Below are positions 9,136 through 17,087 of a DNA stretch of 64,000 nt, in pieces. Position numbers and translations under genes: made by a program. Within the stretch, counting starts at the first letter, position 1; each line of letters starts with the position of its first letter. The notes beneath the pieces were generated by a model. The model saw nothing but the letters and a program-made list of their open reading frames with translations, made no database searches and was not told where the DNA came from. Source of the DNA: Escherichia coli (GTDB lineage: Bacteria; Pseudomonadota; Gammaproteobacteria; Enterobacterales; Enterobacteriaceae); NCBI RefSeq assembly GCF_003334305.1, contig NZ_QOWS01000021.1. One strand, given 5' to 3'.

Positions 9136-10620
9136 ATGCGAAAAATAATCACTCATTTCAAAGTTGTTTTAACGTTACTTCTACCAGTAACCGTATCTGC
9201 CCAGCAGATACAGTGGCAATCCTGTATGGCCAGTCAATTCAACCACTGGTTTGGTGAGGAAAAACCGTCTCCTGACTTACTATGTGGTTATTTGTCTGTT
9301 CCATTAAAATATACAGACACAGGCGGAGATGCTTCTTATGAAAAAAAATCACAAGTCAAACTAGCGTTGACAAAATTGCCGGCAAAAAGCAAGCATAAAG
9401 GAAGTATCCTGATAATAAGTGGTGGTCCCGGGTTACCAGGCATAAATCCTTATATTAACTTTGACTGGCCAGTCACAAATCTTCGTGAGTCATGGGATAT
9501 TATTGGATTTGATCCTCGAGGCGTCGGACAGTCCACTCCGACAATAAACTGCCGGCAATCAGATACAGAGACTCAGGAAAACATAACCGAAAAGCAACAA
9601 GTATTAAATAAAATTAATGCCTGTATCCATAATACCGGAGCCGAAGTCATTCGCCATATCGGCTCTAACGAGGCTGTATACGATATTGATCGTATTAGGC
9701 AAGCCTTGGGGGATAAACAACTGACAGCCGTGGCGTATTCGTATGGAACTCAAATTGCAGCCTTATATGCAGAACGTTTTCCCTACAACGTAAGATCTAT
9801 CGTTCTTGATGGAGTCGTCGATATCGATGACCTGGAGGACAACTTCACATGGCAACTCAAACAGGCACAGAGTTATCAGGAAACGTTTGATCGCTTTGCA
9901 TCCTGGTGTGCGCGTACAAAAAGTTGCCCGCTTTCTTCAGACAGAGATAAGGCAATAACTCAGTTCCATGAGCTATTATCAAAATTACATCACAAACCTT
10001 TATTAGACAGTAAGGGAGAAAATATATCTTCAGATGAACTCATATCATTAACAACAGACCTTCTGCTATGGCGTTCATCATGGCCAACCCTTGCAACTGC
10101 CATACGCCAGTTCTCTCAGGGGATTGTCAGTAATGAAATTGAAACTGCGCTCAGTGCTCCGATAGCCTCAGAAGAGTCAAGCGATGCTTCGGGGGTAATC
10201 CTCTGTGTAGATCAGGGGGATGAGCAATTAACACCAGAAGAGCGAAAATCCCGAAAAGACGCTCTTGCGAATGCCTTCCCGGCTATTAACTTTGACAATG
10301 GACGTTCCGATTCACCTGATTTTTGTGAATTATGGCCAATACATAGCGACCTGAACAAAACTCGCCTGAAAAATACTGTTCTGCCCTCTGGTTTACTGTT
10401 TGTAGCACACAAATACGACCCAACAACGCCCTGGATTAATGCCCGTAAGATGGCAGAGAAATTTTCCAGCCCGTTACTAACAATAAATGGTGATGGGCAT
10501 ACATTAGCTCTCACCGGAGTTAATTTATGTGTAGATAAAGCAGTTGTACATTACCTGATCACTCCACAAAAAATAGAAAATATATACTGCCCAGGAAATT
10601 CTGAAGCAGAAATACAATAA
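9136..10620 (+). CDS. Secreted alpha/beta-hydrolase-fold peptidase-like protein (S33 / tripeptidyl-aminopeptidase-like), 494 aa
   Basis: Signal peptide (…VTVSA|QQ), GGPG and Ser-nucleophile-like AYSYGTQ motifs; AT-rich; sits where appY is in K-12. Confidence 0.55.
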   Translation: MRKIITHFKVVLTLLLPVTVSAQQIQWQSCMASQFNHWFGEEKPSPDLLCGYLSVPLKYTDTGGDASYEKKSQVKLALTKLPAKSKHKGSILIISGGPGLPGINPYINFDWPVTNLRESWDIIGFDPRGVGQSTPTINCRQSDTETQENITEKQQVLNKINACIHNTGAEVIRHIGSNEAVYDIDRIRQALGDKQLTAVAYSYGTQIAALYAERFPYNVRSIVLDGVVDIDDLEDNFTWQLKQAQSYQETFDRFASWCARTKSCPLSSDRDKAITQFHELLSKLHHKPLLDSKGENISSDELISLTTDLLLWRSSWPTLATAIRQFSQGIVSNEIETALSAPIASEESSDASGVILCVDQGDEQLTPEERKSRKDALANAFPAINFDNGRSDSPDFCELWPIHSDLNKTRLKNTVLPSGLLFVAHKYDPTTPWINARKMAEKFSSPLLTINGDGHTLALTGVNLCVDKAVVHYLITPQKIENIYCPGNSEAEIQ

Positions 10621-10641
10621 TTTCAAAATATTCCGCTATTT

Positions 10642-10692
10642 GCTCCCAATGCAAAACATATATTGCATTGGGAGCATATTCATATTTTTGTT
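10642..10692 (+). terminator. Rho-independent terminator after the hydrolase gene
   Basis: 12-bp perfect inverted repeat gctcccaatgca / tgcattgggagc followed by a T-rich tail; coordinates approximate. Confidence 0.6.
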
Positions 10693-10803
10693 ATTATTGT
10701 ATGAAATCGTCTCATGTACACGGTCCTTTTTTCGCCGAAAACTGATATTACTTTAATCAAAAGTTGACGTGCCAGATTCGAAGTAAATTTATAAAATATC
10801 AAA

Positions 10804-11109
10804 TCAATATACATTTTGCACCTTCGAGATAGTAATGACTGTTACTGTAACATGAGTTACAAACAGCTTCATACCCAGAGCTACTGATGTATCAACTCGA
10901 TTCAACAATACCCGATATTTATTCCATGCCTCCAGCAACGATCTTTCTTCCTCCGTTGCGATTTCCAGATCTACAGCATCCTGCAGTGGCGCAATATACT
11001 CACTGAATTCCTGGATGTAGAACTGTGTGGTGACGGTCTTCCAGCCATTCGGCTCCTGCTGTATCGAAGCATACCAGGCTATTTCAATATCGCTATGCTG
11101 CGGCAGCAT
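10804..11109 (-). pseudogene. Tail fibre assembly protein C-terminal remnant (tfaX-like)
   Basis: Translation contains the conserved Tfa motif [37 protein letters not shown] with no N-terminal domain; about 110 nt is a direct repeat of 13690-13800. Confidence 0.7.
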
Positions 11110-11165
11110 TTAACCCCTTGTAATTCATCGCCATAATTGATTTAATTCACAAATAAAACTATAAC

Positions 11166-11834
11166 ATGGTGAAATTAATGAAAAAAAACACAGATGATGG
11201 GGCTAAAATTTACACACCACTTACCCTAAAGCTTTATGACTGGTGGGTTTTGGGAGTATCAAATCGGCTTGCATGGGGATGTCCTACAAAGGAACACCTT
11301 CTTCCACACTTTCTGGAACATTTAGGTAACAACCATCTGGATATTGGTGTTGGAACTGGGTTTTACCTTACTCACGTACCTGAGAGTAGTCTGATATCTT
11401 TAATGGATTTGAACGAAGCTAGCCTGAACGCGGCATCTACAAGGGCTGGGGAATCAAAAATTAAACATAAAATTAACCATGATGTTTTTGAACCTTATCC
11501 CGCGGCGTTACATGGTCAATTTGATTCCATTTCCATGTTTTACCTTCTTCACTGCCTGCCTGGAAATATATCTACAAAAAGCTGTGTAATACGCAATGCG
11601 GCGCAGGCCTTAACTGACGATGGAACTCTATACGGAGCCACAATTCTTGGCGATGGAGTTGTGCACAATAGCTTCGGTCAAAAACTGATGCGCATTTACA
11701 ATCAGAAAGGCATCTTTTCAAACACAAAAGATTCCGAAGAAGGCTTAACACATATACTCTCAGAGCATTTCGAGAATGTTAAAACCAAGGTTCAAGGTAC
11801 TGTAGTAATGTTTTCCGCTTCAGGGAAAAAATAG
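11166..11834 (+). CDS. ybcY: Class I SAM-dependent methyltransferase (YbcY-like), 222 aa
   Basis: Gly-rich SAM-binding motif DIGVGTGFY; same position as the ybcY pseudogene of DLP12. Confidence 0.65.
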   Translation: MVKLMKKNTDDGAKIYTPLTLKLYDWWVLGVSNRLAWGCPTKEHLLPHFLEHLGNNHLDIGVGTGFYLTHVPESSLISLMDLNEASLNAASTRAGESKIKHKINHDVFEPYPAALHGQFDSISMFYLLHCLPGNISTKSCVIRNAAQALTDDGTLYGATILGDGVVHNSFGQKLMRIYNQKGIFSNTKDSEEGLTHILSEHFENVKTKVQGTVVMFSASGKK

Positions 11835-11840
11835 CATCCA

Positions 11841-11882
11841 ACCGCAGCACGTTCTTGCATAAGGCGTGTCTGCGGTTTTTCA
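11841..11882 (+). terminator. Rho-independent terminator after ybcY
   Basis: Stem accgcagcacg…cgtgtctgcggt followed by TTTTT; coordinates approximate. Confidence 0.55.
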
Positions 11883-12348
11883 ACTATTCAGATACATCAC
11901 TCCCATCACATTCATTCCTCCGCATCATAGGCATATAGGCTATATCACCTTGATATTTTTCTTCTTCAGATAAAAACTGTTATCTATGTATACTTTTAAA
12001 CCCAATCCGTGTAGAGTCTCTGCATAAGATAGTTTGCAGTTGCCACTTCAGCTTGCGCCATAAACCGCCTGATTTTTGCCGCCACCTGTTAGCATTCCTG
12101 TATACCTGAAACGACAATGTTTATCTACGAACTTTAAGAACACCCAGGATAAAAATTGTCAACTATATCATATATAACACATTACTAATTCGAGGCTATA
12201 TGAACAGCATACTGATAATCACTTCTCTCCTTATCATATTCAGCATTTTTAGTCATGCCCTAATAAAATTAGGGATTGGCATATCCAATAACCCAGACAA
12301 AACCGATGTATAAGTCAACATATCCTGAATCAGACATACAATATCGCA

Positions 12349-12615
12349 ATGAAAATCAATAATATTTTAAGGAATATCTTCATGAAATCAAAAGACACCC
12401 TAAAGTGGTTCCCTGCGCAGCTTCCTGAAGTAAGAATTATCCTAGGGGATGCTGTAGTGGAAGTAGCAAAACAGGGAAGACCTATCAATACCAGAACATT
12501 GCTTGATTACATTGAAGGAAACATAAAGAAAAAATCATGGCTGGATAACAAAGAATTATTACAAACAGCGATATCAGTTCTTAAAGACAACCAAAATTTA
12601 AATGGTAAAATGTAA
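12349..12615 (+). CDS. Hypothetical protein, 88 aa, AT-rich cargo
   Basis: ORF only; no recognisable motif. Confidence 0.3.
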   Translation: MKINNILRNIFMKSKDTLKWFPAQLPEVRIILGDAVVEVAKQGRPINTRTLLDYIEGNIKKKSWLDNKELLQTAISVLKDNQNLNGKM

Positions 12616-12931
12616 TATAATAAACTTACTTTTTTATCATTTTTCCACTTTAACAACATTTTGCTCCACTTTTCCACGATCAAACAACTTGAAATCTGGT
12701 TAAAATAACACGCAACACTATTCTTCTTCCTTGAGTCCGCCCGGAACTCGAAAAACAAACCGAGTTAAAGCCATTTTTCACAAAATCGATTTTGGGTCTC
12801 ACCAAAATTACGGGGTTGCATACGCATTCGTTTATTTTCGAACGTGTACATACAAATATGCACAAAAATAATCAAAATTATTTTCTGAGATGCATTATGA
12901 TATGAACACCAATTTCGTATAGAGTCTCACT

Positions 12932-13522
12932 ATGTCTCGAATTTTTGCTTACTGTCGGATATCAACGCTGGATCAGACCATCGAAAATCAACGCAGGGAA
13001 ATCGAAAGTGCAGGTTTTAAAATCAAACCTCAGCAAATAATCGAAGAACACATTAGCGGCTCAGCAGCAACCAGTGAGCGTCCTGGTTTTAACCGGTTGC
13101 TTGCTCGCCTGAAATGTGGTGATCAATTGATTGTGACAAAACTGGATCGCCTTGGTTGTAATGCAATGGATATCAGGAAAACAGTGGAACAACTGACCGA
13201 AACAGGTATCAGAGTGCATTGCTTAGCATTGGGGGGCATTGACCTGACCAGTCCAACAGGAAAAATGATGATGCACGTAATTTCAGCAGTCGCTGAATTT
13301 GAACGAGACCTTTTACTTGAACGCACTCATTCCGGGATAGTAAGAGCCCGCGGCGCAGGGAAACGTTTTGGTCGACCACCTGTGTTAAATGAAGAACAGA
13401 AACAGGTGGTATTCGAACGAATTAAGTCAGGTGTAAGTATAAGTGCCATTGCCCGGGAATTCAAAACCTCGCGGCAAACCATTTTAAGAGCCAAAGCAAA
13501 ACTTCAGACACCTGACATATAA
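12932..13522 (+). CDS. pin: Serine recombinase / DNA invertase (Pin/Gin/Hin family), 196 aa
   Basis: N-terminal resolvase catalytic motif (YCRISTLDQ) and C-terminal HTH; strong similarity to e14 Pin as recalled. Confidence 0.9.
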
Positions 13523-13619
13523 AAAATAATCTCGGTGTGAGATGCTTTACGTCTTCCAAGCCCCCTTCCTTGCCGTAAATGGAAAGATACATCTAATTAT
13601 AGAATTTATATGTTTTACC

Positions 13620-14195
13620 CTACGGCAGTGCTGGCCATTCAATATCCTGTGCAGTTGACGTATCAACACGGTTCAGCAACACCCGATACTTTTTCCAGGC
13701 TTCCAGCAATGAGGTTTCTTCCTCCGTTGCGATTTCCAGATCTACAGCATCCTGAAGTGGCGCAATATGCTCACTGGCTACCTGCATCAGGCTGTTTTTT
13801 GTTTCTTCCGCCTCTCGGATCCGGAACAGTTTTTCTGCTTCTGCATCTTTCACCCAGGCTGTGCCGTTCCACTTCTGAAACTCCCCTTCCGGCGATAACC
13901 AGGTAACATTTTCCGGTAACGGACCGAGTTCAGAAATAAATAACGCGTCCCCTGACGCTACGTCATAAACCGTTTTACCCCGATGGTCTTCAACGAGATG
14001 CCACGATGCCTTATCACTGTTGAAAACAGCCACAAAGCCAGCAGGAATATCTGGTGGTGCAATATCGGTACTGTTTGCTGGCAGACCTGTATGAGGCGGA
14101 ATATATGCGTCACCTTCACCAATAAATTCATTAGTTCCGGCCAGCAGATTATAAATTTTTATGGTCCGTGGTTGTTCACTCATTCTGAATGCCAT
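13620..14195 (-). CDS. tfa: Tail fibre assembly protein Tfa, 191 aa
   Basis: Conserved Tfa C-terminal motif; immediately downstream of the side tail fibre gene. Confidence 0.85.
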
Positions 14196-17029
14196 TATGC
14201 AAGCCTCACAATATAGTTAAATGCGATGTTTTTGACGGTGTTTTCCGCGTTACCAGCAGCGTTAACGGTGATGGTGTGTCCATGTGAACCAATCGCAACG
14301 GAGTGCGTATGAGCACCAATACCGACAGTATGCGCGTGTGCACCTGCAGATGCTGCTGTGCCGGACAGTGAATGGCTATGATTACCATCTGTACTGGTAT
14401 TCGCTAACCACCCCGTAGACATACCTACTGAGCCTTGTACACCCCAGGTATTTTGACCTGAGCTTGTATAACCATATTGATAAGTATCTTTAAAAACACT
14501 GGGGTTAAATCGACGGCCATCTCTATGGCTGTGATTACCAGCTGCATTCGTGCTGCCACTTAAACTATGGGTATGCGCACCAGTGTTATTCGTGGATTTA
14601 GTGCCGTAATCAAACGACGATGTGGTTTTCGTCCCCAAATCCGTACTGGATGCGCTGGCGCTGTGGGTATGCGATTTAATGCCGTCCTGTTCCTGAGACA
14701 ATACGGCCCGACCACTGGCAGGTTTGCCCTTAATCGTCCAGCCACGCATATCAGGGATCACGCCTGACGGATAAGCGGCTGCAAGTTTCGGGTATGCAGA
14801 TTTGTCAAAAGTCTGCCCCTGCATCAGGGCATAGCCAGACGGAACGGTATCTGATGGCCACGGGATTGGTGCGCCAGGCGGATAAAACTGCTCTGATGGC
14901 GTATAGAGTGAATAAACTGTACCGTCCGTTAACCCTTCCGGCTTATTAGCAGAATATGCTGGTGACGTATGAATCGTCACGCTGGCATTACTGGTATAAT
15001 CCCATTGAATATTTACACCAGTCGCATAATTTCCGATTGCAACGTAAATATCGTAAGTATCACCAGATGTATTGACCCAGGCAAAATTTGTAAACCCTGT
15101 CGATGTGCGCTGCCATAAAGCACCAGTAATCCCCTTCGGATTACCATTACCTGCACGTAAAACAAGTTCAGATATACCTGCCTGTTGAGGTGACCCCACG
15201 TTAAATCCAGCGCCACCAATCAACGTAATTGAAACAACAGAACTCGCCTGTGGCATGGTTACCGTTGCTAATTTGAACCAACCAGCACCACCGCTGAATG
15301 ACATTGTTGTTGAGTTAAGCGTACCAATATCTTTCGGCGTCAGTGTTATATCCGCTGAAAGCGCCTTACCATTCACCTTACGGGCAGAAGGTACCCGACC
15401 ATTCGCATTGTCATTAGCTGCTTTCACTGCTTTCGGTGTCGCAGCAAGCGTTTCAGATGTGCTGTTGGTTGCACTACTGAGCTGGACAATTCCTTTTTGT
15501 GCTGTCGTAGCGTCCTGTGCGGTGTATTTCCCGTTAGCCAGGTCATACGCGGCCTTAACGGCTTTTGGCGTTGCCGCCTGTGACTCGGAAGTGCTGTTGG
15601 TCGCACTGCTGAGCTGTACTATCCCCTTTTTCGTCGTGCTCGCATCCTCAAGCGCCACGGCGGATGCAATATCCTCTGCCCGTTTTGCTGCTGTCTCGGC
15701 GCGCGTTGCCGCGGATTCCGCCGTACTTTTGCTCTGTGCTGCCGCTGCCGCACTGCCAGCAGCCTCTGTCGCCTTCGTGGATGCCGTCGTGGCGCTGCCC
15801 CTCGCTGCTGACGCCTGTCTGGTCGCCTCATCTTTTGAAGCAGACGCAGATGATGCCGATGACGCCGCCGAACTGGCGGACGATGCGGCAGCCGTTTTTG
15901 AGGATTCTGCGCTGGTTTCCGACGCTTTCGCGTTCGTTTCGGATGTCTTCGCTGCGGAAGCAGACCTCGCTGCTGCGCTGGCCTGTTCAGTGGCTTCGCC
16001 AGCCTTCGTTGTGGCTGTTGAAGCGGATGATGCGGCGCTTTCTGCCGATTTTCCGGCGGCGGTGGCACTGACTGCTGCCTCCTCTGCCTTAATGGACGCC
16101 TCACGGGCCGATGATGCAGCTGCTGTCTCAGAGTCTGCCGCAGCTGAGGCGCTCTGTTCCGCTGCCGTTTCAGAAGACCTGGCATTCGTCTCGGACGTTT
16201 TTGCCGCCTTCACGGAATTTCCTGCCGCCGTTGCCGAGGAGGCTGCACTGCTGGCGCTTGTGGAGGCGTTCGTTTCTGATGATTTTGCCGCCTCTTTGGA
16301 GGCCGCCGCATCTCTGGCTGAAGTGGCGGCTTCTGACGCTTTCGTCGTCGCAGTGGATGCAGAAGTGGCTGCTGATTTTTGTGACGCTGCAGCATTCGTT
16401 TCTGACGTTTTCGCCGCACCGGCACTGGTGGCCGCCGCGCTTTTTGAGGACTCTGCAGCGGCAGCACTTTTTGATGCTTCAGTGGCCTTTGTTGATGCCG
16501 TTCCTGCGCTGGAAGACGCCTCCTGAGCCGAAGTCGCGGCCTGTCCGGCTGACGTGCTGGCTGCACGCGCTGAGCCTGCAGCATCAGTCGCATGGGTTGC
16601 CGCCTCACGGGCAGATGTGCCGGCATCACTGGCTGACTTCTTCGCGGCTGCCGTGTTCTGTGCCACCGCGGACGCGTTACGCGTCACCTCTTCCACCATC
16701 AGTTCAAAACGGCGCAGAGCCTCCGGACGGGCATCATCCTCCGTCATGGCACCGAGAAAATCATTCAGCGTACCGGGTCGGGAATCTTCATACACGGTGA
16801 TGGTCCCGGCATGTGACGGCGGGAATCCTTCCACCAACAGAATAACGCTGTACTGACCGTACTCAACGTCCATGCTGTAACGCCCGGCTTCATCCGGATT
16901 TTCTGAGGCCAGCGTGTTCACCACCACCGTGGTGCTGTTACGTTTTGCTTTCAGCTGGATTGTGCAGTTCTGTACCGGTTTTCCTGTGCCGTCTTTCAGT
17001 ACACCTGAAATCTTTACTGCCATATTCAC
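14195..17029 (-). CDS. stf: Side tail fibre protein (Stf-like), 944 aa, with long Ala/Ser/Thr-rich repeats
   Basis: Repeated KTSETNA-type units, His-rich C-terminal tip (HTHS…HSHS…HAHT…HGHT); lies between lom and tfa. Confidence 0.85.
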
Positions 17030-17087
17030 CCCACAAAAAAGCCCGCCTGAACCGGCGGGCTGTCATAACACTGTGTTACCTGGCTAA

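Follow-up and report, generated by a model that had tools for sequence, protein, structure and literature searches.

In the side tail fibre proteins of Escherichia coli prophages, the low-complexity region that follows PfN is the "PCoil" of Ghosh et al. (2012, PMC3368898), a heptad of the form Ala-x-x-Ala/Ser-x-x-Ser without Leu and Ile, which varies in length by multiples of seven and was shown by circular dichroism (CD), size-exclusion chromatography with multi-angle laser light scattering and rotary-shadowing electron microscopy (EM) to be a trimeric alpha-helical rod that melts near 50 °C. According to Yu et al. (2025, PMC12617516), the Stf fibre of Ur-lambda runs from a collar (residues 1-91) through a linker, a proximal coiled coil (102-393) and a hinge to a distal part that is gp37-like. 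Four such trimeric fibres are carried by each virion and touch OmpC before J meets LamB, and it is for Ur-lambda only that Stf trimers on the tail tip have been established to speed adsorption (PMC12617516). In the needle of T4 gp37, the seven HxH motifs of each chain stack and bind metal ions along the trimer axis, their histidines being iron-binding and essential, and a tip subdomain (residues 932-959) holds the residues that contact lipopolysaccharide (LPS) and OmpC (I933-Y953). Here we analyze the side tail fibre gene, stf, in a 64,000-nucleotide stretch of an E. coli genome (contig NZ_QOWS01000021.1, assembly GCF_003334305.1; the whole stretch is referred to as the window), and we find that the long repetitive part of its product is built on a period of seven residues that is kept in the protein and not as tandem copies in the DNA.

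Ala, Ser and Thr make up 68-80% of every 50-residue block between residues about 110 and 461 of the Stf protein, and the stretch is periodic, as an initial annotation made from the sequence alone had observed. That annotation proposed a unit of approximately 20 residues, and it is here that our results differ. Self-identity within the tract is 0.37-0.42 at each multiple of seven residues tested (up to 140), compared to a mean of 0.215 and to a highest value of 0.347 in 500 shuffles, and it is 0.18 at an offset of 20 residues versus 0.40 at 21. Fourier analysis gives peaks at 3.5, 2.33 and 7 residues. When the sequence is set out in rows of seven, 50 heptads fall into one register with no stutter, with Ala at position a in 47 of the 50 (Val in the other three), Ser at position d in 36 and Ala at position e in 34. 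Super-periods of 14, 21, 28 and 42 residues were sought and none was found, the identity at the variable positions never rising above that of heptad-order shuffles at lags of 1-24 heptads. Four copies of the motif AAK[TS]SETNA are present, irregularly spaced by 42, 28 and 84 residues (6, 4 and 12 heptads). The nucleotide span first assigned to the repeats, about 15250-16550, is that of an open reading frame (ORF) on the opposite strand, the periodic tract itself lying elsewhere (Table 1).

Repetitiveness at the DNA level is weak. Tandem Repeats Finder (TRF), run at its lowest threshold, reported nothing in the tract, its sole reports being two 9-nt micro-arrays, and head-to-tail DNA copies, as in a variable-number tandem repeat, do not show up as an array in the tract. 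The best families from a repeat search are 15-29 nt long and 65-88% identical, spaced by multiples of 21, and DNA identity is 0.41-0.46 at 21-nt multiples versus 0.37 at other in-frame offsets. Exact repeats in the tract reach 12 nt at most, compared to a mean of 11.9 and a maximum of 17 for the longest in codon-order shuffles. Since exact repeats are at the shuffle level and no TRF array is present, the periodicity is kept at the protein level, with the codons diversified. The strong DNA repetitiveness claimed earlier does not hold. The repeat is a heptad, probably of a coiled coil, and thus a structural periodicity of the protein encoded by diversified codons, rather than a DNA tandem repeat.

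Codon composition bears on the long "shadow" ORFs that had been pointed out on the opposite strand and that do exist, the 423-aa example in Table 1 among them. The tract has a GC content of 62% versus 50% in the rest of the gene and a single Leu codon, with TTA and CTA absent, so that two antisense frames have just one or two stops. In one of these, as well as in sense frame +1, the number of stops matches codon-order shuffles (about 1.4 expected), while in the other antisense frame 2 stops are observed versus 9.5 expected, a shortage probably explained by the fixed residue order of the heptad, which would suppress stop-forming codon junctions. An open frame of 423 codons, together with this shortage, might be taken to mark a real overlapping gene, an idea to which we give almost no credence: the product would be a low-complexity Ala/Val/Ser/Asp protein without homology evidence, RefSeq annotates nothing at the position, stop numbers in two of the three antisense frames match the expectation from codon content, and five of the six frames are largely open, as expected in a GCN-rich tract of this GC content. 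The shadow ORFs follow mostly from codon content, and nothing suggests that they are genes.

What structure the heptads adopt can be approached from prediction and from homologues. An AlphaFold2 (AF2) model, run as a monomer on a 65-sequence alignment, gives continuous helix at residues 100-289 and 299-455 with a pLDDT of about 60-83, and by analogy with the fibres described above the tract is predicted to form a coiled-coil shaft that is trimeric and alpha-helical. An alpha helix rises about 0.148 nm per residue, so the 352 residues would make a proximal arm of about 52 nm. A beta-helix had also been offered as an option for the shaft; triple beta-helices are common in phage fibres, and the fourfold recurrence of AAK[TS]SETNA could be read as a trace of roughly 20-residue tandem repeats in such a beta-helix or another beta-structured fibre. 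We consider this highly improbable, given that self-identity at 20 residues is less than half of that at 21 and all multiples of 7 are equivalent, that Ala recurs with a periodicity of 3.5 residues, that AF2 gives helix, and that the homologous PCoil is alpha-helical by CD (PMC3368898). The tract could also be viewed as a disordered low-complexity linker without defined structure, since it is about 75% Ala/Ser/Thr with hardly any Leu, Ile or Val and is masked by BLAST as low complexity (a tblastn search against phages, in which this masking applied, was uninformative on the shaft). A linker of this kind would hardly be expected to hold a strict register over 350 residues with a nearly invariant Ala at one position, to vary in length by multiples of 7 only, or to be modelled as helix, and for homologues helicity, trimerisation and an EM rod have been measured (PMC3368898, PMC12617516); we therefore regard disorder as very improbable and return to the coiled-coil shaft.

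The shaft is one part of what we interpret as an intact side tail fibre of a lambdoid prophage, of the Stf/StfR type, which would act as a homotrimer; we put the probability of this reading at about 0.9. The type of the protein, which had been correctly named at the outset, is borne out by the PF08400 domain, by the match to PDB 9E7M (Ur-lambda Stf) and by the gene order J-lom-stf-tfa. At the other end of the protein, the last 160 residues contain seven HxH motifs, and all seven align one-to-one with those of T4 gp37 (PDB 2XGF; residues 700-942, E = 3.9e-85), in agreement with the earlier suggestion that these motifs are a fibre-tip feature. In the same alignment the T4 receptor-contact residues I933-Y953 are not conserved, the segment between HxH 3 and 4 being longer and unrelated. 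The alignment thus points to a fold and a metal-binding core conserved with T4, and to a receptor specificity that differs.

Several observations weigh against this interpretation of the protein. The AF2 monomer has a mean pLDDT of 54 and its helix is interrupted at residues 290-298, a break that is probably a fold-back artefact of monomer modelling, of the kind reported by Yu et al. for lambda Stf (PMC12617516); in the C-terminal needle the pLDDT is about 30 and the model is too poor for a fold search. An Ala/Ser core is atypical of coiled coils, and the PCoil domains that have been studied experimentally are only about 90-116 residues long (Ghosh et al. 2012, PMC3368898), versus 350 here. 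Finally, the tip subdomain departs so far from its T4 counterpart that the T4 receptor is no guide to that of this fibre.

Comparison of relatives shows that the length of the tract changes in whole heptads. As a measure of tract length in 120 near relatives we took how far the first GIVQL motif lies from the conserved anchor RRFE. This distance is 363 aa, with 50 heptads, in 107 of 121 proteins, the window's own being counted, and 265, 258, 251, 216 or 209 aa in the others, so that the shorter alleles differ by 98, 105, 112, 147 and 154 aa, or 14, 15, 16, 21 and 22 heptads. A 7-aa insertion is also found among the relatives. There are six independent classes of tract indels, all of them multiples of 7 aa, for which the probability is about 1e-5 if in-frame indel lengths are random. 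The deletion sites differ (residues 130-234, 134-231, 162-315, 203-314, 239-392 and 319-423), their flanks are about 99-100% identical, and microhomology at the junctions is 4-6 nt only. One allele (L003) has a 315-nt deletion with 6 nt of junction microhomology and a single mismatch to the window in 2514 nt, and two others, each with about 1% divergence from the window, have deletions of 462 nt (L004) and 336 nt (L005). More distant representatives with the same N domain have a tract of about 6 to 57 heptads that sets in at residue about 105-125.

That repeat number differs among related prophages, as had been anticipated, is therefore clear, with 50 heptads the usual state and 14-22 fewer in some. 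The further suggestion that the repeats are prone to expansion and contraction is correct insofar as length varies in heptad quanta, but the tract is mostly stable. A stronger form of that suggestion, a hypermutable DNA repeat of the contingency type that slips often and so tunes the length of the fibre, could appeal to the in-register deletions with nearly identical flanks and to the wide range of tract lengths in distant relatives. We regard it as improbable, because there is no TRF array, exact repeats are no longer than codon shuffling predicts, the deletion junctions share just 4-6 nt, and exactly 50 heptads are kept in 107 near relatives; moreover, of 5426 complete E. coli genomes 3437 contain at least 80% of a 1.5-kb segment, with identities that are mostly 90-95%, stfR of K-12 being included. 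As a separate observation, three metagenomic proteins of 2496-3903 aa with gpJ-like N termini (P0263, P0266 and P0269) contain many Ala/Ser heptad tracts of about 90-220 residues, one every 250-300 residues; very long central fibres seem to have reused this small-residue coiled coil as a spacer.

The clearest recent change in copy number concerns a different element, absent from the initial annotation, namely the 44-aa Phage_fiber_2 unit next to the heptad tract. Alleles with one, two or three copies exist, the window having two. In strain GE3 and many others the gene is identical to that of the window at 2829 of 2829 positions except for one extra 132-nt unit, which gives a 3-copy allele, and in this allele unit 1 matches unit 2 at 120 of 132 positions (91%), with an 86-nt identical run in common. 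Unit 1 of the window is a hybrid: at the ten 5' differences it has the unit-1 variants, at the two 3' differences those of unit 2, and the crossover falls inside the 86-nt run. To judge from these sequences, the 2-copy allele of the window looks like a recombinant deletion of the 3-copy allele, of the kind left when units 1 and 2 undergo unequal homologous recombination. Alleles with a single copy (898 aa) are otherwise identical in sequence. As the window's two units are just 59% identical in DNA, the 2-copy allele should now be stable.

Taken together, the domains suggest how the fibre might work and how it might vary. The collar domain would clamp the fibre onto the tail tube, as its counterpart does in Ur-lambda, and would be followed by a short linker and by a shaft of about 350 residues of Ala/Ser-rich heptads (xAAxSAx). 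The two 44-aa units and the beta-rich domain may form a hinge and the distal shaft, and the last about 240 residues would be a needle of the T4 gp37 type, whose divergent tip subdomain may contact the host receptor, with Tfa, encoded 3' of stf, serving as the putative assembly chaperone. Rare in-register deletions and insertions would shift shaft length in steps of seven residues (about 1 nm), and unequal recombination would alter the number of 44-aa units. The domain homologies, the single heptad register, the quantised variants and the hybrid unit are shown by the present analysis, and the trimeric coiled coil, the binding of metal and the part played in adsorption are inferred from homologues and published work. 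It is conceivable, though we hold it to be unlikely, that heptad-quantised shaft length and hinge-unit number are under diversifying selection, with the fibre's reach and flexibility adapted to how thick the O-antigen or capsule layer of the host is; if so, the in-register deletion alleles would be adaptive host-range variants and not neutral accidents. The near-isogenic series of alleles (50, 35, 34 and 28 heptads; 1, 2 and 3 hinge units) offers material for testing how fibre length bears on adsorption, or for engineering fibres whose length is set.

The features of the locus are given in Table 1. The longest reading of the stf ORF, that of the initial annotation (14195-17029, minus strand), begins with a GTG at 17029 and gives 944 aa; the ORF is indeed there, but its start is likely to be the ATG at 17023, two codons inside. 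The GTG lies within a Shine-Dalgarno-like GGGGTGA, six bases 5' of the ATG, the ATG is also the choice of RefSeq, and the Ur-lambda protein likewise opens with MAVKISGV.

Table 1. Features of the stf locus in the window; residue numbers refer to the 942-aa Stf protein.
Feature	Positions	Strand	Residues	Basis and remarks
Pin-type serine invertase, 196 aa	12932-13522	+		Resolvase and HTH_7; labelled pinR in relatives; right after tfa
tfa, tail fibre assembly chaperone, 191 aa	13620-14195	-		PF02413; start overlaps stf stop
stf, side tail fibre gene, 942 aa	14195-17023	-	1-942	ORF, RefSeq and PDB 9E7M match
N-terminal collar/attachment domain	16742-17023	-	1-94	PDB 9E7M (cryo-EM), Ur-lambda Stf 1-94, E = 1.4e-51
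phage_tail_N (PF08400)			1-134	Pfam, E = 3e-71; takes in the collar domain
Ala/Ser heptad tract ("PCoil"), 50 heptads	15641-16696	-	110-461	periodicity analysis
Phage_fiber_2 (PF03406) 44-aa unit 1	15509-15640	-		hybrid between 3-copy allele units 1 and 2
Phage_fiber_2 44-aa unit 2	15377-15508	-		59% DNA identity to unit 1; resembles phage Mu fibre S and P2 H
Phage_fiber_2 pair			462-546	Pfam (unit of about 42 aa), E = 3e-20 and 9e-20; resembles Mu fibre S (PDB, E about 3e-8)
Distal beta-rich shaft domain	14972-15325	-	about 567-684	related to T-even gp37 (distal part)
gp37-type receptor-binding module	14198-14926	-	700-942	PDB 2XGF, E = 3.9e-85
Tail collar domain, inside the gp37-type module			717-764	Pfam Collar, E = 1.4e-11
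Stretch with seven HxH motifs	14276-14671	-	785-916	each aligns to an HxH of T4 gp37
Divergent tip subdomain, between HxH 3 and 4	14381-14524	-	about 834-881	2XGF alignment and T4 residue map
Antisense "shadow" ORF, 423 aa	15255-16526	+		sits in one of the two low-stop antisense frames

The neighbourhood is the classical lambdoid arrangement J-lom-stf-tfa, with a J-type host specificity protein (1137 aa) and a Lom protein (199 aa) encoded 5' of stf on the same strand and a Caudo_TAP chaperone directly 3' of it. A terminator-like hairpin (GCCCGCC-GGTTCA-GGCGGGC, then T7; 17034-17060, minus strand) separates the stop of lom from the start of stf. Because the Pin-type invertase adjoins tfa, an invertible fibre segment was sought, and no convincing inverted repeats were found flanking the 3' ends of stf and tfa. 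Genes with 100% identity to stf are present in several complete E. coli genomes, GF47 among them, and 5178 of the 5426 complete E. coli genomes match at least part of it. At locus 10400-14967 in two of the genomes with the identical gene (L001 and L002), beyond the end of the prophage come ydfK, a ynaM-family gene, a SAM methyltransferase, a truncated tfa pseudogene, a hydrolase and ompT, a set of neighbours that resembles the DLP12/ompT region of the K-12 map. Among the homologues, NCBI records give the name "short-chain fatty acid transporter" to several tail fibre proteins of 1151-1188 aa from Shigella sonnei and E. coli (P0048, P0057, P0059-P0061, P0066 and others), an apparent case of a propagated annotation error. 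A protein of 774 aa (P0161) that had been taken as lambda Stf has an unrelated C terminus and was rejected.

Databases and papers already cover the gene and the layout of its domains, the heptad tract, variation by multiples of seven and the HxH needle, and we regard the locus as an ordinary known feature; the use of the present analysis lies in the correction that the shaft is built of heptads, probably as a coiled coil, at the protein level and is neither an approximately 20-residue repeat nor a DNA repeat. Among the closest known proteins are StfR of the Rac prophage of K-12 and the RefSeq "prophage tail fiber N-terminal domain-containing protein" (e.g. WP_072019353.1). StfR has an N domain and a 50-heptad tract about 93% identical to those of the window in DNA and the same J-lom-stf-tfa-pin context. 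It differs in the part C-terminal to the heptad tract, which is mosaic, StfR-type proteins of 1120-1151 aa carrying other distal modules. The PCoil of EPclA/B, which are collagen-like side tail fibre proteins, likewise comes directly after PfN, consists of Ala/Ser heptads nearly without Leu and Ile, and varies in length by multiples of seven, but it is about 90-116 residues long as opposed to about 350 in the window, whose protein lacks a collagen domain and continues instead with Phage_fiber_2 units and a gp37-type needle. Against T4 gp37 (2XGF), residues 700-942 align over the whole crystallised fragment with the seven HxH motifs in place, whereas the tip subdomain is longer and unrelated to T4 932-959, and the window protein is a siphovirus side fibre with a Tfa chaperone and not with gp38/gp57. 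Finally, Ur-lambda Stf (PDB 9E7M) is about 90% identical over collar residues 1-94 and has the same layout of linker, coiled coil, hinge and gp37-like part; its middle and tip sequences differ from those of the window, and its coiled coil (102-393) is shorter than the about 350 residues found here.

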